A DNA stretch of 64,000 nucleotides from Candidatus Anderseniibacteriota bacterium (GTDB taxonomy: Bacteria; Patescibacteriota; Andersenbacteria; UBA10190). Shown here one piece after another: positions 1,233 through 62,042 of the stretch (the first letter of the stretch is position 1; every line of letters begins with the position of its first letter). The translations under genes were made by a program, and so were the position numbers. A model generated the notes under the pieces. The model was not told the origin of the DNA, made no database searches, and was given only the letters and a program-made list of their open reading frames with translations. The DNA is taken from the NCBI GenBank assembly GCA_021414205.1, contig JAIOOW010000003.1, positions 48 through 64,047 on the forward strand, written 5' to 3'.

Positions 1233-2351
1233 CTAATTTCCCCCTGCGATCGTTTCTACTGCTTGTCTGAGCTGCGCTAACTGCGTTACATAACTTGGAA
1301 GCGTGTTCTGCATCGCAAGCAGAGCGCTTGCTGCAACTTGCTGATTGGTTGTTGCATTCTGCTCGATTGTTTGCAATGTTTGTCCTAGGAACGTAATCAA
1401 GGAAACGTATAACTGATGATATTGGGCTGCATTTTGCGGAGCAGGGACGCCTTTCAATGCCGTAGCGAATTGCTGAATTCTTTGCCGAGCAGCAGTAAGT
1501 GGAGCAGTATTTCCGGAAGCGGCGCTTTGAATTGCGTTTGTAATCGTAGTTCCGTCAGATAATTCTTGCGGACGCAACGAATCTATTTGCGATAAATACG
1601 CCTTCATATCCGCCGCCGATGTTTTACTCGTGATATGTAATTCCGACATCGAAACGAGCACGATACTGTTCGATCCTCCCGTATTCGTGCCACCACCTGC
1701 AGTTGGCTGAGGGGTTGGATTCGACCCGCCCGTAGCAGGCGTCGGCGTAGCGTTATTATTCGGAGAATACGTTGGCAATGGAGTTGGATTTCCCACAGGG
1801 ATCGGGGTAGGCAGTCGATCGCTCCCATGCCCGTCACCTCTTTTCGTCGGATCAAACCCAGCTTTCACTTCTGCGCCATCAGTAAATCCATCACCATCGG
1901 AATCCGGATTAAACGGATCTGTATGCCAAACCGAGCACTCGACGTCGTCTGTTAATCCGTCGTGATCACTATCCAGCTTTGCAGAAGAATTAGGATTGAG
2001 CGGATCATGACCTGTTCGCACTTCTGCGCCATCAGAATACCCATCGCCATCGGTGTCCGGATTATTTGAATCCGTTCCGTAAATAGCCTCTACAGAATCC
2101 GGCATACTATCGCCATCAGTGTCTTTCTGCCCAACCCAAGTATCCGGACACACGCCTCGAAATGCAACGGGGCTGACGCTCGGATTTGGAGCGGTGGAAT
2201 TAATCGGTAACCCTCCAGTAGTAGGCGCCGGAGTTGGTGTTGCAGTCGCCTGTGGTTGCCCTCCGCCAAGAAAAATAAACCATATACCAAAAGCAATTCC
2301 TGCAATTGCAACAACCCCTGCGACTACTCCCAAAAGAACCCTCCAGTTCAT
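1233..2351 (-). CDS. TM-anchored Thr/Pro-rich protein with thrombospondin type-3-like calcium-binding repeats.
   Basis: N-terminal TM segment, then about four tandem 23-aa DxDxDGxxDxxE repeats (DTDGDGYSDGAE, DSDHDGLTDDVE, DSDGDGFTDGAE) typical of TSP3/OmpA-like Ca-binding repeats, then PT-rich linkers. Confidence 0.55.
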   Translation of the reverse strand: MNWRVLLGVVAGVVAIAGIAFGIWFIFLGGGQPQATATPTPAPTTGGLPINSTAPNPSVSPVAFRGVCPDTWVGQKDTDGDSMPDSVEAIYGTDSNNPDTDGDGYSDGAEVRTGHDPLNPNSSAKLDSDHDGLTDDVECSVWHTDPFNPDSDGDGFTDGAEVKAGFDPTKRGDGHGSDRLPTPIPVGNPTPLPTYSPNNNATPTPATGGSNPTPQPTAGGGTNTGGSNSIVLVSMSELHITSKTSAADMKAYLSQIDSLRPQELSDGTTITNAIQSAASGNTAPLTAARQRIQQFATALKGVPAPQNAAQYHQLYVSLITFLGQTLQTIEQNATTNQQVAASALLAMQNTLPSYVTQLAQLRQAVETIAGGN

Positions 2352-10719: not shown

Positions 10720-12600
10720 CTACTTCATGTATCGCTTCAAATGCTCCATGGCCTGCAAGAACCCGCGCCCGCCATGCAAATGCCCCTGCCAAATCTCCGG
10801 AACCATCGTTTCAGAATATCCTGCAAGCGGATCGAGGATCTTTTTAAAATCAACCGTTCCTTGGCCAATTTGCAGCCCCTCTTCACCAGTACCAGAACCA
10901 TCGGCAACATGAAGATGATGAATAAACGGTTTTAGCTCCGTAATCATTTCAACCAAATCTTCTCCGTACTGGTTACAGGAGAGCGCTGCATGAGACGTGT
11001 CAAAGCACATGGAATACCCAGTTTCTTCGAGGAATTTTTTAATTTCATCTTTTAACATGAAAATATTCGTAACCCATTCACCTCCGAACACCCATGGGCG
11101 AGGTGGAAGATTTTCCGGAAGCATTTCAACACCATCCGTCTTTAATTGCGATAATGTATCTGCGAATAATTCCAGTAGCTTTGCAGGATGCGGGGATCGG
11201 GTAAGCGTAATTCCTCCAGGATGAATAATAAATTTCGGCGTTCCTTGAAACGATTCCCCAAGCTTACGCGCAACATCGACGCTTCGCTGCAAAATCGCAA
11301 TAACTTGCTTGCGCTCATCAATATCTTCTGATGCTGGGTTCAAATATACACGCTTCATGTATTCCGGCGCATGCACGACAACTTCTTGCGAAAAAGATCC
11401 CGTTGGAATTTCTTCATCCAAATCTTTATCGCTCAAATGAAATTCGAACAAGTCGGGTTTAAATTCCAAATAATTTCGAAAATCCTTCCATCGAACAACG
11501 GGGCCCCATTTCCAAGAAATGTCCTCTGAAGAAAATGTTTTCGCAAGAGAAGCTCCAACTACATCGTCCTCCGTAAGAGCATCGCCAGCAGGAATATCCC
11601 TACAAGCAGTAACGCCAACTAATTCGTCCAGTCTCTGTGGGGATAATCCTTTTGCAGGACTTTTTGTGGTGAGCATATCGCGCGTAATGACGGTTCCGTC
11701 AGCAATAAACGTCTTTGCAACAACGCTCTTGCCTAACAGTTCTCGATTCATAATCTCCCCTCGAGAAAGTTTTTTTACGCCCTCCCCAACCGCCATTTCA
11801 ACTTCGCGAATTCCTGCAACCATGTCCTTAAATTCTTGCGGGAGCAGGGAAGCTTTGTGGTCCGGTCCTTCCAAATTTCTATCCGTGGTAATGTGTCGCT
11901 CAATAATGCACGCGCCCCGAGCAACTGCTCCGATGGAAACGGCAATTCCGCGTTCGTGTCCGGAATATCCTACCGGAACGCCATACACGCTCAGCGAATC
12001 CATATACTTCAAATTAATTTCCTTGAACGGCGCCGGATATGTGCTATTGCAATGCAAAATGGCAAACGGAACACCCAATGTCTTAATAAACTCTACGCCC
12101 GCTTTAATTTCTTCCTCCTGAGCCATTCCAGTAGACACGATCATCGGCTTTTTTGTCTTCGCAATATATTCCAAAAGCTCGTTATTCGTAAAATCAGGAG
12201 AACCTACTTTGTATACCGGAACATGGAGAAGATTTTCAATCATATCGCAGCTTTTCTTATCCCACGGATTCACCATGAAAATAATATTTCGCTTTGCCGC
12301 ATATGCTTCCAATTCCAAATAAGCATCGTCAGACAGCTCAAATTCTTTGAGTAGGGGGATTAAATACTGATACTTCTGCTCTGCACTATTCGGATTATCT
12401 AATATCTTTTTTTGATACACTTCCGCCAAATTTCGTTTTTGGAATTTTACCGCATTCGCTCCGGCATCTGCAGCAGCATCAATGAGCTCCCGTGCACGAT
12501 CGACGCTGCCGTTATGGTTTAGCCCGGCTTCCGCAATAATAAACGTAGGGTTGCCTGGTCCGATCTTTATATCACCCACTAGAAGAGGTTCAATTTTCAT
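10720..12600 (-). CDS. N-acylneuraminate (nonulosonate) synthase NeuB/PseI/LegI-like with SAF domain, fused to a C-terminal xylose-isomerase-like TIM-barrel (sugar phosphate isomerase/epimerase) domain.
   Basis: The N-terminal part (IGPGNPTFIIAEAGLNHNGSVDRARELIDAAADAGANAVKFQ) is the NeuB signature and is followed by a SAF-like segment. The C-terminal approximately 250 aa carries FEFHL, VVVHAPE, IIHPG, ENLP, CFDTSHA and HLHVAD..GEEG motifs of the AP_endonuc_2/xylose-isomerase-like fold. The start is chosen at internal Met39 (MKIEPLL, 12600) by alignment to NeuB N-termini. The ORF is open upstream to 12714. Confidence 0.72.
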   Translation of the reverse strand: MKIEPLLVGDIKIGPGNPTFIIAEAGLNHNGSVDRARELIDAAADAGANAVKFQKRNLAEVYQKKILDNPNSAEQKYQYLIPLLKEFELSDDAYLELEAYAAKRNIIFMVNPWDKKSCDMIENLLHVPVYKVGSPDFTNNELLEYIAKTKKPMIVSTGMAQEEEIKAGVEFIKTLGVPFAILHCNSTYPAPFKEINLKYMDSLSVYGVPVGYSGHERGIAVSIGAVARGACIIERHITTDRNLEGPDHKASLLPQEFKDMVAGIREVEMAVGEGVKKLSRGEIMNRELLGKSVVAKTFIADGTVITRDMLTTKSPAKGLSPQRLDELVGVTACRDIPAGDALTEDDVVGASLAKTFSSEDISWKWGPVVRWKDFRNYLEFKPDLFEFHLSDKDLDEEIPTGSFSQEVVVHAPEYMKRVYLNPASEDIDERKQVIAILQRSVDVARKLGESFQGTPKFIIHPGGITLTRSPHPAKLLELFADTLSQLKTDGVEMLPENLPPRPWVFGGEWVTNIFMLKDEIKKFLEETGYSMCFDTSHAALSCNQYGEDLVEMITELKPFIHHLHVADGSGTGEEGLQIGQGTVDFKKILDPLAGYSETMVPEIWQGHLHGGRGFLQAMEHLKRYMK

Positions 12601-13204
12601 AAGAGGAAAGTACCGCACGAGCAGGGACGCCGTCAATACCAGGTATAGATAGCGGCAAACACATAAGTTGATATGGGCCCGGCTGAATATCGGGCAGATA
12701 CAACCCTTCAACAATGACTATATTATGCGTCAGCAATATTTCATGCACTCGATCCTTTATGCCCTTTTTCTTAATAGAGAGAGCATCAAGGCCAACTAAT
12801 ACTATGCCAAGCTGGGCAATTTTTTCCGCAGCGCTTTCATCGAGCGCAGTAAAGTCTGCTCGAAATTCGTCAACAGAGAAGTTTGAATTGGCAGTTTTAA
12901 AAATAATTCGCTTACTGCCTGTTTCAGGAATGTGAGCAGATGTTATCACTGCAACGTCTGGGGGAATTTCCACAACCTCGCAATCGCCCACATATTGATC
13001 TAGGCTAAATGACTCTATTCCGGAATTACTAGCATTAATATGCGAAAGTGCATCTATATGGGTACCCGTATGAGATCCGAGAGAGATAGCAGTAAGACCG
13101 CTCTGCTCCACGCCTGCTTTTTGAATTTGTAATAGCTCAACGCCTGGATTGCCGGGATATATTGCCATAGCAGAGTGAATAGGTCGCGAAATATCAATCA
13201 GCAT
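12590..13204 (-). CDS. Cyclase-family protein (kynurenine formamidase-like).
   Basis: HTGTHIDALSH matches the putative-cyclase HxGTHxDxPxH metal-binding motif. Confidence 0.6.
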   Translation of the reverse strand: MLIDISRPIHSAMAIYPGNPGVELLQIQKAGVEQSGLTAISLGSHTGTHIDALSHINASNSGIESFSLDQYVGDCEVVEIPPDVAVITSAHIPETGSKRIIFKTANSNFSVDEFRADFTALDESAAEKIAQLGIVLVGLDALSIKKKGIKDRVHEILLTHNIVIVEGLYLPDIQPGPYQLMCLPLSIPGIDGVPARAVLSSYEN

Positions 13205-23981: not shown

Positions 23982-26468
23982 CTATCCAATATCAAAAAGG
24001 GACTCGCTCATGTATGAATCGTGTTCCACTTTATCGCTTTGTTGATTAGGTTTTACTCCTTCAAATCGAGATGTAATCTCTTGCTCAACATCAGCGCGAG
24101 ATCTGCCATAGAGCGTCCGCGAATTCTCTTTTATCTGCCCTGCGATATCAGGATCTCCAATTGCAGGAGGAAGCGGCACAGCAATACTGCATGCGCGCTC
24201 CGGCGTACTGTTCACAAGAGGTCGAACAACGGCAGTAAATCGTCTCAAGTTTACTAAATCATATTGCGTAAACACGGGTGCAAATTGTTTTTCCATAAAC
24301 TCCGCATCCTCAACGCCAATGCGATACGAAACAATCGTACCAACGTTTCCAAATACGGCATCTGCAATCGGCTCGTCAAGCTGATTAATAAACTGATGTG
24401 CCAAATTAAGATTCAAACGATACTTTCTTGCTTCCGACAATATCGTCGCGATGCTGTCGGTTGTAAAATTTTGAAACTCATCAAGGTACAAATAAAAATC
24501 ATTACGCTCGTTTTCCGGAATATCTGCGCGACCAAGAGCAGCTATTTGAATTTTAGATACCAGTACAAATCCCAATAAATCAGAATTCATATCGCCTAAT
24601 TCCCCTTTCGATAAATTGCAGAGCAGAATTTTCTTCTGATCCATAATCTCCCTCACATCAAATGATGATGTTGCCTGCCCGATAATATTCCTCACTGTGT
24701 CGTTACTAATAAATCTACCAAGCTTACTAATGATATAGCTGAGCATATCCGCAGACATTTGTCCGCGCTGGGACTGTGCAAATTCTTGGTTCCAAAACTG
24801 CAACACAACAGGGTTTGTAACTTTGCTCAATATTTGCTTCCTGAATGGCTCATCCACAAACATGCGAGGCACGTCGAGCAATGTTGCCTGCGGATCTTCA
24901 ACAAGCGCTAATAATGCATTCCTTAAATAATGCTCGAACATCGGCCCTATCGATTCCGGATTTAACCTTGCGGCAAGCTTTTGCAAAATTTGCACTACCT
25001 CATTTACAACTAAGTCCCTCTGCTCAGAATTCTTTGATTCTAAAATATTAAACCCGAGTGGGCGGTCTTTATCTCGCGGATCAAACAGCACAACATCCTT
25101 CAATCGATTCTGAGGAATGTGGTGTAGAATATCTGAAATTAAATCGCCGTGCGGATCTACAACGCCGACGCCATTCCCTGCCTGAATATCCTGAATAATC
25201 ATGTTTAAAAACATCGTCGTTTTTCCAGTTCCAGTTTGGCCCAATAGATACATATGGCGTCTCCTATCAGACTGGCTGATATGTACAGGCGTATCGATTC
25301 CCCGATACTGATTAACACCAATTAACACGCCATCTTGAGGAAGATTACTTGGCGCAGGCGCAGACTTAGCTCCTCTCCAAACTATATTAGGAGTAGATGT
25401 GGTAGGAAGAGGAAAGTGATACATACTAGATATTTCAGCAGTGCCAAACACCGATGCGGAGGATTCATCAGGAACTCGAAATACCATCTTCTCAATAAAC
25501 TTCTTCTTGTTTTTAGGTTCCTTAAACACAAGCTGATTTAAGTCGGGAAAATCATACTGAGAAAATGCTGATGCAAGGCCATGGAATACGCGCTCCGCAT
25601 CGTCCCGCTTTCGCACAGAAACGCCCACGCGAATATTTACAGAGAACTGCTGTTGTACCATTTTCGCTTCTACCAACTCAATACGTTGTTGCATCCGAGT
25701 TGTCATCTTGCCTGCTCGCTGCTCGTCCGTATCCCTATCCGACTTTGTTTTCGTTACTGCAGATAAAATTGAGGAAAAACCAAACGAGGAGCTCGAAAGG
25801 TCCGCTTGCTTCCCGAGCATCGTACGTTTTGTGGCTTGCGATGCCTGTATAGATGACGATCTCGATGCCGGCGTAAGAATGTACTGTATTAGTGCGGAAT
25901 CAGTGCTTTGCATTTTTGCCAATGCGCCCGTAAGCGGCTGCATCGGATCAACTTCCAACTCTTTATATGTTGCAATTGGCAAATATTCTTTCCGTCGTAA
26001 TCGGAAACTGGCCACACGAACAGCATCCCCTTCCGCAAAAATGGTAAATTCTGGAGCATCCTTAACTTCCGCTTCTGGATAATGCGCATAAATCTGCTTT
26101 TCCAAATGCTGAATATACTTCCGTTCTGTTCCTGCAAAAAACAAAATTCCTTGATCTGGGATACTGGCCATCTCAAACACCACGACTGGCTTACCATATA
26201 GAAACTGCTGTTTCCAGGATGATGGCAAAGATGAGAGCGTAGATAAAAACTGCTCTCCAACCGCGATACGCTCCTTGATTGACTGCCCAATACCTTCCTC
26301 CCTATCTTCCTTCTGCATATCTTTCGGCAACAGCACTTGGAGCATTTGAATATCTAGCGATCGAGACATTCGCGCACGTTCACGAAGAAGCAGCGCTATC
26401 GCAAAAAGTCCGGCGCAACAGAGGCCCAACATAATAACTAGTAACAAAAACCCGATAAAAGAAATCAT
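23982..26468 (-). CDS. TrwB/TraD/VirD4-like type IV coupling-protein-family ATPase with an approximately 400-aa N-terminal extension.
   Basis: N-terminal TM segment. Walker A YLLGQTGTGKTTMF followed by VVDPHGDL matches the TrwB_AAD_bind pattern (GxTGxGKS...VDPnGD). Walker B is LYLDEFQNF. The 370-aa region before the NTPase domain includes Ser-rich low complexity. Confidence 0.55.
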   Translation of the reverse strand: MISFIGFLLLVIMLGLCCAGLFAIALLLRERARMSRSLDIQMLQVLLPKDMQKEDREEGIGQSIKERIAVGEQFLSTLSSLPSSWKQQFLYGKPVVVFEMASIPDQGILFFAGTERKYIQHLEKQIYAHYPEAEVKDAPEFTIFAEGDAVRVASFRLRRKEYLPIATYKELEVDPMQPLTGALAKMQSTDSALIQYILTPASRSSSIQASQATKRTMLGKQADLSSSSFGFSSILSAVTKTKSDRDTDEQRAGKMTTRMQQRIELVEAKMVQQQFSVNIRVGVSVRKRDDAERVFHGLASAFSQYDFPDLNQLVFKEPKNKKKFIEKMVFRVPDESSASVFGTAEISSMYHFPLPTTSTPNIVWRGAKSAPAPSNLPQDGVLIGVNQYRGIDTPVHISQSDRRRHMYLLGQTGTGKTTMFLNMIIQDIQAGNGVGVVDPHGDLISDILHHIPQNRLKDVVLFDPRDKDRPLGFNILESKNSEQRDLVVNEVVQILQKLAARLNPESIGPMFEHYLRNALLALVEDPQATLLDVPRMFVDEPFRKQILSKVTNPVVLQFWNQEFAQSQRGQMSADMLSYIISKLGRFISNDTVRNIIGQATSSFDVREIMDQKKILLCNLSKGELGDMNSDLLGFVLVSKIQIAALGRADIPENERNDFYLYLDEFQNFTTDSIATILSEARKYRLNLNLAHQFINQLDEPIADAVFGNVGTIVSYRIGVEDAEFMEKQFAPVFTQYDLVNLRRFTAVVRPLVNSTPERACSIAVPLPPAIGDPDIAGQIKENSRTLYGRSRADVEQEITSRFEGVKPNQQSDKVEHDSYMSESLFDIG

Positions 26469-47673: not shown

Positions 47674-49071
47674 TCATGCATAAATCCTTTCTCGCAAGAA
47701 GCTGATCTCTTGTGATAACTCCTCATCATTATCAATAAGTTTTTCTATTTTTTCGCATGCATGCATGGCAGTTGTGTGGTCTCGTCCGCTAAAATGTTCA
47801 CCAATAGATGGAAAGGACATATTGCTTTCTCTTCGAAGGATGTACATTGCAACCTGGCGTGGTCGCACGATTTCTTTTTTTCTGGACTTTCCGCACAATT
47901 CCTCATGGGAAATATTATAGTAAGAGCTTACTGCGGAAATAATTTCCTCCGCGTTTACTGTTTTGCGTTGAGGTTTTTCAATAAGATCTTTAAGTACTCG
48001 CTTAGCATATTCCAGGGTTATTTTTTCGTGATGGAGGTCAAAGTATGCTGCTACCTTATTAAGCGCTCCTTCCAATTCTCGTACGTTGCTTTGAATGTTT
48101 TTTGCTATATAGGAGAGCGCGTCGGAATCGATGTCTATATTTCTGAGGTCTCGTTTTTCTTCTAGGATTGCAAGGCGGGTTTCGTAGTCTGGCCGCTTTA
48201 CGTCAGCTATCATGCCGGCAGATAATCTTGATGATAGGCGCTCTTGGAGTGCTGGGATAGCTGATGGTGGGCGATCGCTGCTTAAAATAATTTGCTTGTT
48301 TTGATTATGGAGTGTGTTAAATGTATAGAAGAGCTCCTCTTGAGTTTTGTCTTTGCCCGCAAAAAACTGAACGTCGTCAATAATAAACATATCCACGTCT
48401 CGGTAGCGCTTTTTAAATTGCTGTATAGTCCCCTCTCGGAGAGATTCGACGAATTCATTCGCAAATTTTTCAGATGCTACATACATAACAGTGAATCCGG
48501 GATTTGCTGCGATAACTGCATTTCCTACTGCTTGTAGGAGGTGTGTTTTTCCCAAACCAACTCCGCCGTAAATAAAAAGAGGGTTATATGTTTCACCTGG
48601 ATGCTCGGCAACCGCTCTGCACGCTGCGTGCGCAATTTCGTTACTTGTACCAACTACGAATGTGTCGAATGTGTACTTTTTATTGAGAGGTATTGAGGAT
48701 GGTGATGGTTGCTTGGTTGGGTATTTTGCGATGTGATCGGATGATGACGGAGTATTTTCGTTTTTTGCGGTATTTTTTTGAGCCACAATGCGAATATTTT
48801 TCTTGGAAATGCGCCGATCGGTATTCTTGGATGCAATAGAGAATTTGATGTCAGATATAGAGTTGTCTATCCCCTGGATTACTTCAAGGATGAGTGGTTT
48901 GTATTTTTTAGATAACCATTCGTATGCAAAAGGGTTTTGAGTTTCGATAATCGCCACGTCGTTTGTACGCTCTTTGATATTTGTGTTTCGAAACCATGTA
49001 AGGAAGTTCCCCTTACTCACGCGGAGCTCCAGTTGATCAAGTGCTACCTTCCAAAGTTGAGTGTCTTTCAT
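47674..49071 (-). CDS. dnaA: Chromosomal replication initiator protein DnaA.
   Basis: AAA+ Walker A GGVGLGKTHLLQA, box VII and sensor motifs, and a C-terminal DNA-binding domain (...MYILRRESNMSFPSIGEHFSGRDHTTAMHACEKI). The start is at Met8 (MKDTQLWKVALDQL), which aligns to DnaA N-termini. The ORF is open to 49092. Confidence 0.93.
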   Translation of the reverse strand: MKDTQLWKVALDQLELRVSKGNFLTWFRNTNIKERTNDVAIIETQNPFAYEWLSKKYKPLILEVIQGIDNSISDIKFSIASKNTDRRISKKNIRIVAQKNTAKNENTPSSSDHIAKYPTKQPSPSSIPLNKKYTFDTFVVGTSNEIAHAACRAVAEHPGETYNPLFIYGGVGLGKTHLLQAVGNAVIAANPGFTVMYVASEKFANEFVESLREGTIQQFKKRYRDVDMFIIDDVQFFAGKDKTQEELFYTFNTLHNQNKQIILSSDRPPSAIPALQERLSSRLSAGMIADVKRPDYETRLAILEEKRDLRNIDIDSDALSYIAKNIQSNVRELEGALNKVAAYFDLHHEKITLEYAKRVLKDLIEKPQRKTVNAEEIISAVSSYYNISHEELCGKSRKKEIVRPRQVAMYILRRESNMSFPSIGEHFSGRDHTTAMHACEKIEKLIDNDEELSQEISFLRERIYA

Positions 49072-49217
49072 ATGCAAGCAGAATCGTATCATGGTTATCC
49101 ACAGCTGTGTACAGTCCGTAAGGTTGAAAATGTGGAAAAGGTGTTGATAATGTGTGTAAAAAATAGTTGATGGTCCTGACTATTGACTTTATAGCGCCTA
49201 TAAAGCATCATTGGGAA
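49072..49217. promoter_or_regulatory. dnaA upstream region / origin of replication candidate (DnaA boxes, divergent promoters of dnaA and rpmH).
   Basis: Perfect TTATCCACA at 49095-49103 and TGTGGAAAA (one mismatch) at 49131-49139. The region is AT-rich. Gene orientation and G/T skew switch here. Confidence 0.5.
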
Positions 49218-49699: not shown

Positions 49700-49919
49700 A
49701 GGTGTGAGTCGGCTAGTAATAGGTCTGATTGTATTATATCAGCACACTCTCTCGCCAGATCATGGACCATTTAAGTATGTGTACGGTGGGCCGGTATGTA
49801 AGTTTCATCCGACATGTTCCGAATACACTGCCCAAGCTATTCGCGAACATGGAATAAGGGGTCTGTGGGCGGGCTTTAAGAGAGTTTTATCATGTAATCC
49901 ATTTAGTAAGGTGCTATGA
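49674..49919 (+). CDS. yidD: Membrane protein insertion efficiency factor YidD.
   Basis: YQHTLSPDHGP...CKFHPTCSEYTAQAIREHGIRGLWAGFKRVLSCNPFS is the YidD signature. The ORF track start at 49656 is a TTG, and the ATG at 49674 is preferred. Confidence 0.85.
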   Translation: MEFFKALNRGVSRLVIGLIVLYQHTLSPDHGPFKYVYGGPVCKFHPTCSEYTAQAIREHGIRGLWAGFKRVLSCNPFSKVL

Positions 49920-50668
49920 ATATTATCTCCACAATTTATATAGAAGGACTGTTTCGGCCTCTGCTTAATTTATTGATTGGCATTACGAATATTACCCCTG
50001 GCCACGCAGTTGGTTGGGCCATTATTGTGGTCACAATTATTGTTCGCCTTATCTTGTTGCCATCCTTTTTACACCAGGCAAGGGCGATGCAAAAAAATCA
50101 GGAAAAAATGAAGTCGATACAATCTCAACTCGACGAAGCGAAGATAAAGCATAAGGACGATAAGGCGAAGCATGCGGAGGAGACAATGCGTATTTATAAG
50201 GAAGCAGGAGTTAATCCTGCTTCGGGGTGTTTGCCACTCATTATTCAGCTCCCTATCTTGCTTGCCCTCTATAGAGTATTTTTTTCAGGGTTAACCCCAA
50301 GCACATACCATTATTTATATTCATTCGTAGCTCACCCGGCGGTGCTTAGTTTCGCATTTTTGGGGATTAATTTGAATAGCCCGAGCCTTTTGCTTGGCGT
50401 AATTGCTGGCGCGCTTCAATTTATTCAGATGAAATTCTTAGCTCCACAGCAACAGGCGCAACCTGGAGCAAATGAGGAAACTGCCGCAATGATGGCATCC
50501 ATGCAAAAAAACATGATGTATATTTTCCCGGCGATGACTATTTTTATAGCACTTCGCCTCCCTGCTGCACTTGCGCTGTATTGGGCGGTTTCAACGTTGT
50601 TCGGAATTGTTCAGCAGGTTATTGTTCGCAGAACGTTGCACTTAACGACCAATCCGCCGAACATTTGA
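49916..50668 (+). CDS. yidC: Membrane protein insertase YidC (short Gram-positive/Oxa1-like form).
   Basis: 250 aa with five TM helices and conserved GCLPLIIQLPILLALY plus a C-terminal Y..S....Q. Preceded by an AGGTG Shine-Dalgarno. ATGA overlap with yidD. Confidence 0.85.
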   Translation: MNIISTIYIEGLFRPLLNLLIGITNITPGHAVGWAIIVVTIIVRLILLPSFLHQARAMQKNQEKMKSIQSQLDEAKIKHKDDKAKHAEETMRIYKEAGVNPASGCLPLIIQLPILLALYRVFFSGLTPSTYHYLYSFVAHPAVLSFAFLGINLNSPSLLLGVIAGALQFIQMKFLAPQQQAQPGANEETAAMMASMQKNMMYIFPAMTIFIALRLPAALALYWAVSTLFGIVQQVIVRRTLHLTTNPPNI

Positions 50669-57467: not shown

Positions 57468-57821
57468 CTAAGGGTTTTTTTCAAGCGCGCGAACTCGATC
57501 AATTAAATCTTGTAACCTTGCCTCGTCTTTATTTATTTGGTCTTGTAGCTCAGCGGATGCAGTTCCTCCTGGAGGTATCTGGCTTTCTAATGTCGAAATA
57601 TCGTTTGTAATAGCTTGTTCTTGGGATTGGAGGTCCGCAATTTCAGCAGCAGTATCTGTTCCCGAACCCCCAGAACTAGTTGAGGATGTTCCTCCCCCCG
57701 GTGCTCCGCTTCCTACAGGCCCCAAGCTTGGCTCCACTGCATTTTTCCCCAAGAAAGGATTGATGGTGTTAAGCAATACTACGGATATGAATGCAATGAA
57801 TATGCCCAGCAATGCAGACAT
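57468..57821 (-). CDS. Small TM protein with Gly/Ser-rich linker and coiled-coil tail (C-terminal half of a disrupted/recombined paralog).
   Basis: The N-terminal TM MSALLGIFIAFISVVLLNTINPFLGK...GAPGGG is encoded by the 141-bp exact repeat. It is followed by an SSGGSG linker and a coiled coil (EIADLQSQEQAITNDISTLESQI...). Confidence 0.4.
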   Translation of the reverse strand: MSALLGIFIAFISVVLLNTINPFLGKNAVEPSLGPVGSGAPGGGTSSTSSGGSGTDTAAEIADLQSQEQAITNDISTLESQIPPGGTASAELQDQINKDEARLQDLIDRVRALEKNP

Positions 57822-57830
57822 GATCCATTC
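57690..57830. repeat. 141-bp perfect direct repeat, copy B (identical to 58052..58192).
   Basis: Base-by-base identical to 58052..58192 on comparison by eye (cctccccccggtgctccgcttcctacagg...gcagacatgatccattc). It encodes the TM/Gly-rich segment of two paralogous small proteins. Confidence 0.9.
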
Positions 57831-58027
57831 TTTGTATCAAGAAAAGCCCCTACTGGCTGATTCGCGGTAAAGGTTTTTGATCCTGGTAATCCGACTTCGA
57901 AACATCCTAATGCGGATGCTGATGATGGGCAGGGCGCAGATGTTTGTGCGTGCGCGGAATATCCAAAAAGTACCGACAAAAAGAGGCTGGAGGTAGTAAT
58001 AAATTTTTTTATGGTGCTATGGTTCAT
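57779..58027 (-). CDS. Small secreted Cys-containing protein (N-terminal half of a disrupted paralog, possible pseudogene fragment).
   Basis: Signal peptide plus the segment APCPSSASALGCFEVGLPGSKTF, homologous to AQACPSGSTYGCLEVGLPGNSDF in the 58049..58579 gene. Its 3' end reads into the shared repeat out of frame. Confidence 0.3.
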   Translation of the reverse strand: MNHSTIKKFITTSSLFLSVLFGYSAHAQTSAPCPSSASALGCFEVGLPGSKTFTANQPVGAFLDTKNGSCLHCWAYSLHSYP

Positions 58028-58048
58028 GACGCAAGTAAGTATACCGCA

Positions 58049-58579
58049 CTATCCTCCCCCCGGTGCTCCGCTTCCTACAGGCCCCAAGCTTGGCTCCACT
58101 GCATTTTTCCCCAAGAAAGGATTGATGGTGTTAAGCAATACTACGGATATGAATGCAATGAATATGCCCAGCAATGCAGACATGATCCATTCGGTGATAA
58201 CGCCAATGATGACGAGGATTGCGAGGGCGAATTTCACAACGAGGTTAACTAAATCTCTGATAGGGGTGCCGGCATATGCAATTGCGTCAACTTTTGATCC
58301 AGCACTAAAATCGCTATTGCCCGGCAATCCAACCTCAAGACAGCCGTATGTTGATCCGGATGGGCACGCTTGCGCACTAGTAGAGCTAGAACCTGTGTCT
58401 ATAACATCTCCGCCGGGCGCAGGCTTGCCGTTTCCTATTTGCGCCTGAGCGTACATATGTTGATTTCCGAGCAAGAAAAATGTGCTCATTATCACGAATG
58501 CTATTTTCTGTGGTAGCGGCATTAATATTAGTATATCACGCACTACTTTACGTTTTGTAAAGAACCGATGCTTTGGCAC
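58049..58579 (-). CDS. Secreted/TM-anchored small Cys-containing surface protein (intact paralog).
   Basis: Signal peptide (IAFVIMSTFFLLGNQHMYAQA), a Cys-containing domain (CPSGSTYGCLEVGLPG), a hydrophobic helix, then the repeat-encoded TM/Gly-rich segment ending ...GAPGGG. Confidence 0.45.
   Translation of the reverse strand: MPKHRFFTKRKVVRDILILMPLPQKIAFVIMSTFFLLGNQHMYAQAQIGNGKPAPGGDVIDTGSSSTSAQACPSGSTYGCLEVGLPGNSDFSAGSKVDAIAYAGTPIRDLVNLVVKFALAILVIIGVITEWIMSALLGIFIAFISVVLLNTINPFLGKNAVEPSLGPVGSGAPGGG
58052..58192. repeat. 141-bp perfect direct repeat, copy A.
   Basis: Identical to 57690..57830 at an offset of 362 bp. Confidence 0.9.
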
Positions 58580-59046
58580 ATACCCAGCGTTGCTTTATCA
58601 ACTGTCCATCCGGTCCATGTGTCGCAATACCCTTTGAATAGTAAGAAGAATACGATAGTTATCAGAACTGTTCCTAGAAGAATTGCGATTAATGAAGTGA
58701 TAATAATTCCACTGATACCTTTTTTCCCTCCAATGTATCTTCCTAACAGCGCTCCCGCAGCTGTTCCTAGGAATGGAATAACAGATCCAATCCACCCTCC
58801 TGCAAATTCGCCCGCTACCTGTCCCGCCTTCTTATCTGCCATTTTTACGGCTCTATTGCTGGCCATGGATTTTAATAGCGATAGATTTTGCTTGTGAGCA
58901 TATTCTCTATTTGCGGTATCTTGATCCTCTTCGTCGATATTCGTGTTTACTAATTGGGGCTTATAGGATCTTTTTTGTATTTGAGCCTCTATGCGATTGC
59001 GATTTGCGTTTAATTCTGCAAGGCGAGCATGTTCATTGCTTGCCAT
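58543..59046 (-). CDS. Coiled-coil plus C-terminal multi-TM small protein (hypothetical, T4SS-associated).
   Basis: An N-terminal charged coiled coil followed by Gly-rich hydrophobic helices (GGWIGSVIPFLGTAAGALLGRYIGG..IIITSLIAILLGTVLITIVFFLLF). Located directly downstream of the VirB4-like gene. Confidence 0.4.
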   Translation of the reverse strand: MASNEHARLAELNANRNRIEAQIQKRSYKPQLVNTNIDEEDQDTANREYAHKQNLSLLKSMASNRAVKMADKKAGQVAGEFAGGWIGSVIPFLGTAAGALLGRYIGGKKGISGIIITSLIAILLGTVLITIVFFLLFKGYCDTWTGWTVDKATLGMCQSIGSLQNVK

Positions 59047-59049
59047 ATA

Positions 59050-60876
59050 TTACGCATTAGCGCTCAACTCTTTCTTTGCAGCCTCAATGGCAAGGATTTG
59101 TTGCGGATCGGATGTAATAATCTGGTCTTCTGCATAGCTTGCCACAACTTTGATTGCCACGTGCTTGAGCCCCGCAAAGAAAATACCCTCTCCTACGTCG
59201 CTTTCCAGTAACCTGAACTTTTCGTGGTCCGTTAAGTAGAATACTTCAGATAGAGTATCGATTGCTGCCGGAGATTGTCGCAACAAGAGCTGAATAGATG
59301 AATTCGTCACAATCGGCTTGCCGTACTTTGATGCCAAGAAGTCGGAAATGTCTTGCGTAATCGTTGTTACTCCCAAATAGTACTTGCGGGCGCGTTTTGC
59401 CATAGAGAATAAGAATTTCGCAGATTCTTCGTTGCGCATCATGATCCAGGCTTCGTCTACGACGAGGATTCGTCGCTTTAATTGGCTTCGAACACGGTTC
59501 CAAATGAATCCGAGTACTACATACATGGCAATCGGCCGCAATTCTTCTTCCATGTCTCGGATATTAAATACGATGCACGCTTGATCAAGGTCGATATTGG
59601 TTGCTCGGTTAAATACTCCTGCAAATGTACCTTCTACGAAGCGCTGTAAGCGCACCGCAACGTTCTTTCCACCTTCCATTTCTTTCGTAATGTTGTAAAA
59701 ATCTTGCAGAGTTGGTACTTCTGGATTTTTCCAACGCGCACCGCGTGTAATATCTTTTAATGCATACGTTTCCCAAAGACCAGAGTCAACGATGGATTGC
59801 TCCTCTGCAGAAAGTCCATCGACCATCAAGGAAATTAGACCGATTAAGCGCGTAATATTTTCTCGTAAGGCAGATTCCGGATTTTCGTCTTCAGCTAATT
59901 CCGGTAAATCGAACGGATTGATGCGATGATCGGATGCGATAGCGATTTGCAGATACGCTCCCCCTACGGCTTCCGCGAGGTATCTGTATTCTTGCTCAGG
60001 GTCGATGACGATAACTTCGGTACCAAACATCATACTTCTTAATATTTCCAGTTTTACGGTATAGCTTTTCCCGGCACCGGATTTTGCGAAGATGACCATA
60101 TTGGCATTTTCTAGGCTAAACCTGTCGAACAATACCAAGCTGCTGTTATGCAGGTTGATTCCGTACAGCACTCCCGTATTGCTTGTAAGGTCCGAGCTTA
60201 CGAACGGGAAGCTGGTAGAGAGCGGCGACGTGTTCATGTTCGTATTTACGGCCAAGTTATCGTGTCCGAGCGGTAATGTAGAGGTAAACGCCTGCTCCAT
60301 TTGGAATAGCGCCGGCTTTGCGTAGATAAGGCGCCCTTCGAGCAATACCTCAACTTGAGAGAGGATGTCATCCAATTCTTCCTCCGTATTTGCATACACC
60401 GTAATATAGAGGCCGTACTGATAAAAGCGCTCTGTCCCCTGCACTAAGCGGTCTCGGAGCTCTTCAATGTCTTGGTATGCTGTTTCGAGCTGCGGATCGC
60501 GTACCTTTCCTTGCTCCTGCTGCATCGTAATAGATGTAGATACTTGAGTAATGCGCTTTCTAAGCTCTTTTAAGATGGTTGCAGAGTCTTGCGGATAAAT
60601 AAACATTGCAACGTCGAATTCCACGTCAAAATTTACGATAGAGGCAAACCAATTCGTATCTAGGTATCGCGGATAGGTTGTTACGTAGATTGTTGTGGCA
60701 AATTTGCCGTCTATTTCCAACGACTTTGTCTTCACTTTGAATCCTGATGGGGCTATCAGGTCGCGAAGCGATGATACTCCTTTCTCGAATTGATCCATAA
60801 CGGCCTTATCTTCTTTGCTGATCGGGGCAGTTGGTGTACCCGTCTTTTTTTGTGGGAATAGAGAGGGGAATTTCAT
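59050..60876 (-). CDS. VirB4/TrbE/CagE-family type IV secretion ATPase.
   Basis: An N-terminal VirB4-type domain (KSLEIDGKFATTIYVTTYPRYLDTNWFASIV), Walker A IFAKSGAGKSYTVK and Walker B ILVVDEAWIMM (the DEAW motif typical of VirB4/TraC). Confidence 0.75.
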   Translation of the reverse strand: MKFPSLFPQKKTGTPTAPISKEDKAVMDQFEKGVSSLRDLIAPSGFKVKTKSLEIDGKFATTIYVTTYPRYLDTNWFASIVNFDVEFDVAMFIYPQDSATILKELRKRITQVSTSITMQQEQGKVRDPQLETAYQDIEELRDRLVQGTERFYQYGLYITVYANTEEELDDILSQVEVLLEGRLIYAKPALFQMEQAFTSTLPLGHDNLAVNTNMNTSPLSTSFPFVSSDLTSNTGVLYGINLHNSSLVLFDRFSLENANMVIFAKSGAGKSYTVKLEILRSMMFGTEVIVIDPEQEYRYLAEAVGGAYLQIAIASDHRINPFDLPELAEDENPESALRENITRLIGLISLMVDGLSAEEQSIVDSGLWETYALKDITRGARWKNPEVPTLQDFYNITKEMEGGKNVAVRLQRFVEGTFAGVFNRATNIDLDQACIVFNIRDMEEELRPIAMYVVLGFIWNRVRSQLKRRILVVDEAWIMMRNEESAKFLFSMAKRARKYYLGVTTITQDISDFLASKYGKPIVTNSSIQLLLRQSPAAIDTLSEVFYLTDHEKFRLLESDVGEGIFFAGLKHVAIKVVASYAEDQIITSDPQQILAIEAAKKELSANA

Positions 60877-61574
60877 AGAGCGGGTTCCGTTTCTTCTACT
60901 TTTAAATCAGTCACATTGCGCAATTTCTGATTTCGCGATGTTGTTGGGTTGAAGTAGTTGTAAAATAACTCAATTAATTCCTGCGTTTTAAGCGGCACCA
61001 CGCGCAAGCCAATTCCTCGAAGGCCGATTGCGATCTGCTCTACTCGGTGGAGAATCTGTGTCTTATTGTGCTCAAACTCAACGTCGTTCATTTTGAGATT
61101 CCCAGTTGCGCCCTTGGCCCCTTTCGTAATTCTGCCGAATGTCCCCTCTTTCTTGCTCTGGGATACGGAGAATGGAATGGTTACAAAGAACGTTTTGGTC
61201 ATGATATTACTTCCTTTTACGAGTTCTCCGATGAAGTTGATATATTCGGTCATCTGTAAATGCAGTAACTCGTTTTTTTGCAGATCCCTAAGGCGTTTTA
61301 CTTCTTCTAAATAGGCCGTAATATCCATTTTTCGAGAAGAAACGGTGAGCTGGATGGAGAAGTCCAATGAATTAATAAATTCCTGATATGCGTAGATGAT
61401 AGCGTTCTGTTCTTCCTCTGATTTTAATGCGAAATTTACGGAAGAGATCATGAGCACGCTTCGCATTGTTCCGTCGTTCAAAATTAAAATTCCATCTCGA
61501 ATCTCCGAAATTTTAATGAGCGATTGGCTTGCACGCCCTTTGCTCGAAGGATTAAGCATGTCGAAGATTGCCAT
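60873..61574 (-). CDS. Hypothetical T4SS-associated protein.
   Basis: A 233-aa soluble protein whose stop overlaps the VirB4-like start (ATGA). No recognisable motif. Confidence 0.4.
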   Translation of the reverse strand: MAIFDMLNPSSKGRASQSLIKISEIRDGILILNDGTMRSVLMISSVNFALKSEEEQNAIIYAYQEFINSLDFSIQLTVSSRKMDITAYLEEVKRLRDLQKNELLHLQMTEYINFIGELVKGSNIMTKTFFVTIPFSVSQSKKEGTFGRITKGAKGATGNLKMNDVEFEHNKTQILHRVEQIAIGLRGIGLRVVPLKTQELIELFYNYFNPTTSRNQKLRNVTDLKVEETEPAL

Positions 61575-61598: not shown

Positions 61599-62042
61599 CT
61601 ATTTGGGTTCTTCGGCTAATGGATCTTCAATATCTTCCGTGCTGACATTTCCTTTTGTATCGAGCGATTGCGCAATTGCATCGAGCGATGAAGATTCCCG
61701 CTCAGCCTTCGCAGTTGTGCGCACGGCGTCCCATTCATCGTCTACAATCTTGAACGGTTCAACCTTTTGTCTGCGCCATACGTATAGCTGGCCTTTTGAT
61801 ATATATGAAAATCCTGCAAGTATGACGGCGCCGAATGATTTGCCGTATATTTTTACATGAGCAAACACTGCTGCAATGCCTAGGACGGGCAGTGCAATCG
61901 TGATAAATAGCGATAAGTCGGAGTAAATATATACTGGCACAAGTAACATGCACGCAACGATGTACATGATGAATTGCTTGAGCGTAAATGGACCGATAAT
62001 CTTGTCCTCGATGTCCGTAAATTGTGGTACTTGAAATCGCAT
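61599..62042 (-). CDS. Small two-TM membrane protein (VirB3/PrgI/TcpE-like candidate).
   Basis: 147 aa with two adjacent TM helices (FIMYIVACMLLVPVYIY / FITIALPVLGIAAVFAHV) and an acidic C-terminus. The size and topology match the small proteins found upstream of VirB4 in Gram-positive T4SS. Confidence 0.4.
   Translation of the reverse strand: MRFQVPQFTDIEDKIIGPFTLKQFIMYIVACMLLVPVYIYSDLSLFITIALPVLGIAAVFAHVKIYGKSFGAVILAGFSYISKGQLYVWRRQKVEPFKIVDDEWDAVRTTAKAERESSSLDAIAQSLDTKGNVSTEDIEDPLAEEPK

Follow-up and report, generated by a model that had tools for sequence, protein, structure and literature searches.

The T4SS of Patescibacteria is an MPF-FATA-like system that is frequently found near dnaA, and its genes often lie close to the replication origin (PMC12102498). 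VirB2-like pilins of this phylum have been recorded in 1,948 assemblies with 441 tandem arrays of 2–11 genes, and tandem VirB2 arrays in 383 Patescibacteria assemblies; identity between the members of an array averages 25% and reaches at most 54% (Microb Genom 2025, PMC12102498). In Ca. Southlakia epibionticum ML1 the pilin array is essential, according to work cited in that survey. VirB2 paralogues that lie side by side and are thought to provide surface variation are also described there for Bartonella and Anaplasma phagocytophilum (via PMC12102498). Unlike the locus considered here, these are diderm, host-cell-targeting systems, and the literature consulted describes no homogenised identical core of this kind for them.

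Here we analyse a stretch of 64,000 nucleotides (the window) from a Candidatus Andersenbacteria MAG, an ultrasmall (CPR) bacterium. The window contains a locus that belongs to the known Patescibacteria VirB2-like arrays, with tandem PF18895/PF04956-type genes by virB4 and prgI/virB3, an MPF-FATA-like arrangement, a position near dnaA and no relaxase seen nearby. It lies beyond the published range in its internal identity and in the coiled-coil tail of one member. The two predicted pilins, A and B, are 63–65% identical over the shorter protein, their 82–85-aa core is 100% identical in DNA, and copy B carries a C-terminal coiled-coil tail, three features that set the locus apart from the published arrays.

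Two predicted pilin genes beside a T4SS gene cluster

The only family of perfect repeats of at least 40 nt in the 64-kb window is a 141-nt direct repeat, the two copies of which (57690–57830 and 58052–58192) are 100% identical and start 362 nt apart; the lack of any other such repeat excludes a chance origin. Recomputation gave 0 mismatches between the copies and immediate divergence on both sides of each, as the original prediction had stated. Its description of the products, with A fused in frame and B split, likewise matches the minus-strand ORFs.

The upstream of the two genes, A, contains the copy at 58052–58192 (minus strand), which encodes EWIMSALLGIFIAFISVVLLNTINPFLGKNAVEPSLGPVGSGAPGGG, the predicted second membrane helix and Gly-rich end. 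As deposited, gene A (58049–58522, minus strand) encodes 157 aa from an ATG at 58522; this start is likelier than an alternative GTG (giving 58049–58579), and the NCBI annotation (K8Q97_02770) begins at 58489 (58049–58489). The product has a signal peptide, a C-x7-C / GCLEVGLPG tip and helix 1, and ends in ...EWIMSALLGIF...GAPGGG before the stop codon. Gene B is represented by two minus-strand ORFs. Its 5' part (57779–58027, 82 aa, K8Q97_02765) encodes a signal peptide and a CPSSASALGCFEVGLPG tip, and enters the 141-nt repeat in the wrong frame. Its 3' part (57468–57821, 117 aa, K8Q97_02760) starts MSALL and encodes helix 2, a Gly/Ser linker and a tail of ~60 aa predicted to form a two-helix coiled coil. 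Genes A and B are adjacent on the minus strand, with 21 nt between them, two genes downstream of virB4. The deposited NCBI proteins P0001 (146 aa), P0006 (82 aa) and P0007 (117 aa) match these three ORFs exactly. The window therefore reproduces the deposited sequence, in which they lie on a contig of 435,833 bp.

The deposited ORFs match no Pfam family, and PF18895 (T4SS_pilin) does not hit A or either part of B even at E ≤ 1. A homology search nevertheless recovered intact relatives: P0002 (180 aa), an orthologue of A, and P0004, P0005 and P0008 (228–233 aa), which are one-piece orthologues of B. PF18895 scores 29.6–35.1 bits on the intact orthologues P0002, P0004, P0008, P0003, L005-A and L006-A (gathering score 26.6), and 29.0 and 29.5 bits on the 179-aa (A) and 233-aa (B) products obtained when the two gaps in the window genes, described below, are filled from the related locus L001. 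These scores, together with the published VirB2-like arrays in Patescibacteria (PMC12102498), leave the earlier view that the proteins have no obvious characterised homologues without support, and identify A and B as putative tandem VirB2-like pilin genes of a Patescibacteria T4SS, not orphan surface proteins. The TrbC/VirB2 profile named in the original prediction (PF04956) gives 17.1–21.7 bits for intact relatives and repaired genes, under its gathering score of 27.9; the PF04956 signal reflects only a related fold.

Hydropathy profiles contain two hydrophobic stretches in the relatives, as against one stretch of 52 residues in deposited A, and B is split. The replacement of the hairpin by this single stretch accounts for the failure of deposited A to match Pfam. 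An AlphaFold (AF2) model of P0008 (pLDDT 69 on average and 78–86 in the core blocks) has helices at residues 3–21, 68–101 and 106–140. Its successive elements are a signal helix, then a short tip, the helical hairpin, a Gly/Ser linker that is disordered and finally a coiled coil of two helices. Foldseek comparison of the pilin model with the PDB gave nothing at E ≤ 0.001 and returned generic helical hairpins only, which do not discriminate; a profile search of PDB sequences gave 0 matches at E ≤ 1. The wider pilin family comprises 10,911 representative clusters at E ≤ 1e-3. Close Andersenbacteria members have in common an FG(C/N)FEVGLPG tip motif, a GGYMYMTAAGNASQV loop and variable C-terminal extensions. 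Three proteins of 555–820 aa from the representative search (P0037, P0054 and P0114) have 6–8 pilin-like stretches per chain and may be fused pilin arrays.

The placement of the tandem paralogues beside a VirB4 T4SS, also part of the original prediction, is confirmed by the neighbouring genes, all on the minus strand. These encode a VirB4-type T4SS ATPase (59050–60876, 608 aa; P-loop_TraG 87.8 bits, CagE_TrbE_VirB 29.4 bits), a TraC-like protein of the T4SS cluster (60873–61574, 233 aa) and a PrgI / VirB3-like protein (61599–62042, 147 aa; PrgI 31.2 bits, gathering score 27). Between virB4 and the pilin genes lies a gene for a conserved membrane protein (58543–59046, 167 aa), which matches no Pfam family and is present in all syntenic loci. 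The same synteny of pilin genes next to virB4 and virB3/prgI occurs at six related loci (L001, L002, L005, L006, L007 and L009). Some 8 kb from the T4SS cluster are dnaA (47674–49092, minus strand) and yidC (49916–50668, plus strand), a distance that fits the published origin proximity of Patescibacteria T4SS genes (PMC12102498). An 828-aa protein (23982–26468, minus strand) about 33 kb from virB4 contains a TrwB_AAD_bind domain (32 bits), which is of the T4SS coupling-protein-like kind.

Gene conversion of the hairpin-encoding core

For comparison we used four independent SPAdes-type assemblies of the locus: L001 (ENA ERZ27336827, coverage 196), L002 (GCA_964450915.1, the same contig as L004), L005 (ERZ27336817) and L006 (ERZ27336827, coverage 7.6). 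Because L006 is identical to L005 across the aligned pilin region we count it as the same strain, so that the set represents three distinct genomes. All four are colinear with the window at 88–92% identity and have its gene order, with both pilin genes intact, each complete with its own start codon and signal peptide. Their perfect internal repeat is longer than that of the window, at 246, 249, 255 and 255 nt in L001, L002, L005 and L006, with a spacing of ~501–504 nt, and it encodes the entire two-helix pilin core, from helix 1 through the loop and helix 2 to the Gly-rich end. The 141-nt block of the window corresponds to the final 141 nt of this repeat; in copy B (57690–57830, minus strand) the match to the relatives' repeat runs 3 nt further (AAA, to 57833). 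The possibility that it is the relatives' longer repeat that is artefactual was rejected, since a hairpin complete with helix 1, the GGYMYMTAAGNASQV loop and helix 2 is found in every one of the more distant single-copy homologues (P0010–P0028). Only one pilin, of the B type, is present at the syntenic loci L007 and L009, which are more distant; copy A is therefore a tandem duplicate specific to this subclade. A degenerate DNA pattern of the core retrieved L004 alone from species-representative genomes, and nothing from JGI metagenomes.

Across a 240-nt core there are 0 differences between A and B within each of L001, L002 and L005, as against 18–31 differences between genomes. In the 60 nt directly upstream of the core the relationship is reversed: A and B of one genome differ at 27–30 positions, and B orthologues at 6–9. 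This upstream divergence, set against the similarity of the B orthologues, indicates that the duplication is older than the split of these genomes and that the core has been homogenised repeatedly since. Gene conversion between the paralogues, as originally proposed, is thus real and recurrent over the ~250 nt that encode the hairpin, in three genomes and four assemblies. Independent recent duplications as the source of the identical cores were rejected, since the tips of A and B have diverged and the orthologues of each keep their synteny from genome to genome. Bubble popping can slightly inflate repeat identity in short-read assemblies, but it fails to explain 18–31 fixed differences between genomes.

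The conversion tract covers the conserved core only, ending at the variable tip on one side and at the stop codon of A on the other, so the tip and tail remain different while the hairpin DNA stays identical in A and B. Concerted evolution of duplicated bacterial genes through gene conversion is familiar from tufA/tufB. As in that pair, the sequences here are identical within a genome and divergent between species, with sharp tract boundaries; unlike in tufA/tufB, only the central ~250 nt are converted and the flanking coding parts are ~50% different. The identical core suggests a constraint on the two pilins to fit into one and the same filament or assembly machine. Conversion could persist under selection for co-assembly or as a mere consequence of homology.

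Two further observations concern variation around the core. The tip of pilin A (58193–58397, minus strand, compared with L005 3577–3832) has two strongly divergent allelic types even though the genomes are otherwise ~90% identical, Cys-containing in the window and L001 and Cys-less ('SDPYGNFEVGLPG') in L002, L003, L005 and L006, and the blastn alignment of the window with L005 is interrupted precisely across it. L003 (1810–2541 of a Logan contig, SRR8931212) has a single 243-aa pilin gene that joins the signal peptide and tip of A to the tail of B; this one-gene form is either a collapse of the repeat in a k=31 assembly or a real recombinant that lacks the inter-repeat segment.

Two gaps in the deposited sequence

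Relative to every relative, the window has just two gaps, 66 nt in A and 142 nt in B, both of them damaging, and both end at one base, the first of the 141-nt block. At junction A (58192–58193, minus strand; GTTATCACC|GAATGG, with deposited junction word GTTATCACC|GAATGGATC) 66 nt are absent by comparison with L001, L002, L005 and L006, with no microhomology. This gap is in frame and removes IVIGGYMYMTAAGNASQVQTAK, the end of helix 1 and the loop. At junction B (57830–57834, minus strand; GATAC(AAA)GAATGG, with junction words CTTGATACAAAGAATGG and GATACAAA|GAATGG) 142 nt are absent by comparison with the relatives, with the result that the reading frame shifts and the product loses helix 1, the loop and the last part of the B-specific tip. 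Junction B contains a CAAAA microhomology that is short by one A. An intact locus would be ~208 nt longer than the one deposited. Neither junction was found in other assemblies represented in the protein collections searched. A programmed frameshift in B was rejected: the relatives have one continuous ORF of 228–233 aa with 142 more nt at this point, and the fused product would still lack helix 1.

Some numerical details of the gaps may be recorded here. With the repeat delimited as in L001, what copy A retains of its start is exactly 39 nt (58154–58192), and 39 is also among the default k values of MEGAHIT. The gap in copy B, at 142 nt, equals k+1 for k=141; a fourth A in the CAAAA run would reduce it to 141 nt.

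We think it probable that the deposited sequence misrepresents the repeat, through an assembly error over two ordinary pilin paralogues. In the real genome both pilin genes would then be intact and contain a repeat of ~246–255 nt, and the splitting of B and the 141-nt length would be artefacts; these two features are most likely not biological. De Bruijn assemblers produce repeats of k-mer length and break at repeats longer than k, and 141 is the default final (largest) k of MEGAHIT. When the intact L001 and L005 loci are turned into a de Bruijn graph at k=141, it consists of four unitigs, of which the two that exit the repeat begin GAATGGATCATG; their start (GAATGGATC) is the base where the 141-nt block begins and both gaps end. 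The window resembles such a repeat break in that its repeat has the default k as its length, is the terminal k-mer of a longer repeat and carries errors at repeat entry, and differs from one in that the contig is continuous, has no Ns and contains novel junctions. The k=141 contigs leaving the repeat could have been butted onto shortened left-hand contigs in a later joining step, in which case ATCACCATHGTTATTGGTGG and ATHGTTATTGGTGGATA would be expected beside this strain's copy-A tip.

An assembly error is favoured by the fact that filling the gaps restores full-length pilins above the Pfam threshold, and by the state of the remaining T4SS genes of the window, which are intact, of the same lengths as in the relatives and colinear with them, while A and B have no further decay. 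It is also favoured by the absence of either junction from any other assembly and by the reported essentiality of the T4SS and pilin array in the one Patescibacterium tested, as cited in PMC12102498. Against it, the junction words are beyond what a pure de Bruijn assembler makes, because no k-mer is shared at either junction, so a second step (a scaffolder, gap closer, contig merger or hand curation) must be assumed. The left-hand pieces end elsewhere than k=141 unitigs would, and this, like the microhomology at junction B, also counts against an assembly error. A chimeric low-k path as the source of the junctions was rejected, there being no shared word of at least 21 nt at either of them.

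The main alternative, which we regard as unlikely though far from negligible, is that the deletions are real and that the deposited sequence, which encodes precisely such a state, records a pilin pair that was inactivated recently, one or both genes being young pseudogenes. Within or beside the long repeat, slippage or illegitimate recombination would have deleted the loop of A in frame, and from B both helix 1 and the loop, shifting its frame. Recombination is favoured by long perfect tandem repeats, the CAAAA/CAAAA microhomology at junction B is typical of real slippage deletions, the one-gene form in L003 (A tip and B tail) could be a real recombinant, and junctions of this kind are not invented by de Bruijn assemblers. 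However, two independent events would have to end 0–3 nt apart and leave a remainder whose length, 141 nt, matches exactly the final k that a widely used assembler has as its default, which is a strong coincidence. Neither gene is further decayed, the rest of the T4SS genes are intact, both pilins are intact in three related genomes at 88–92% identity, and no second assembly contains either junction. The recombination-generated pseudogene of the original prediction is possible, but less likely than the assembly artefact which that prediction listed among its refutations, given that both copies are damaged, that the two gaps end where k=141 unitigs begin and that the T4SS cluster is otherwise undamaged.

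Programmed variation is far less plausible still. The 141-nt block would here be a recombination site for exchange of tips and tails or for on/off switching (cassette or phase variation), an idea to which the clearly active conversion between A and B, the two very different allelic types of the copy-A tip among close relatives and the view that variable VirB2 arrays serve host adaptation (PMC12102498) lend some colour. The locus has only two copies, however, and in the relatives each is complete with a start and signal peptide, which leaves no silent cassettes; more distant syntenic loci have a single pilin. Neither inverted repeats nor a recombinase gene was found at the locus, and the deposited state has no functional hairpin in either gene and thus offers no alternative expressed form. 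In the antigenic variation of Neisseria pilE/pilS, conversion moves variable segments between one expression site and silent partial cassettes. The loci are alike in that conversion acts between pilin-related sequences; unlike in Neisseria, there are no silent promoterless cassettes here, and the two pilin families are unrelated (type IV pili as opposed to a T4SS pilin). Conversion at this locus homogenises the conserved core and spares the variable parts, the opposite of cassette shuffling, and the cassette-style mechanism that had been proposed for the locus finds no support. We give equally little credence to a combination of real deletions with a recombination hot spot at the start of the 141-nt block, by which a CPR epibiont would switch off both of its T4SS pilins; if true, it would amount to phase variation by deletion, affecting a host-contact organelle that is otherwise essential, and the genes could be restored through conversion with intact alleles carried elsewhere in the population.

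If the gaps are, as we favour, an assembly artefact, then two ordinary T4SS pilin genes lie behind the 'hypothetical proteins' K8Q97_02760, K8Q97_02765 and K8Q97_02770, each of which is a fragment, and surveys would score this MAG as being without VirB2-like pilins.

Proposed pilin assembly and other features of the window

By analogy with the pilin family, both proteins would be exported by means of a cleaved signal peptide, inserted as a helical hairpin and recruited by the VirB4-driven machine. Each would display a short exposed N-terminal tip (FG[C/N]FEVGLPG), with a disulfide pair or none, followed by the membrane hairpin that packs in the pilus. With identical hairpins, A and B should be interchangeable in assembly. 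They may nonetheless give the filament or surface two different faces, because their tips differ (that of A being C-x7-C or Cys-less according to strain) and only B is coiled-coil-tailed: A ends after the Gly-rich stretch, to which B adds a Gly/Ser linker and the coiled-coil tail. An Andersenbacteria subclade with two pilin paralogues whose hairpin DNA is held identical, while tip and tail differ, would fit a filament whose interchangeable subunits present different surfaces.

Scans of the whole 64 kb (1–64000) found neither a tRNA gene nor any Rfam family that reached its gathering score. Elsewhere in the window, a 664-aa ORF (10720–12714, minus strand) combines NeuB (sialic-acid-synthase-like), SAF and xylose-isomerase-like TIM barrel domains in one chain. 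A 372-aa protein (1233–2351, minus strand) has bacterial TSP3 (calcium-binding) repeats, and its gene contains the one other repeat of the window, 75 nt long with 76% identity between its copies (1848–1922 and 2001–2075).
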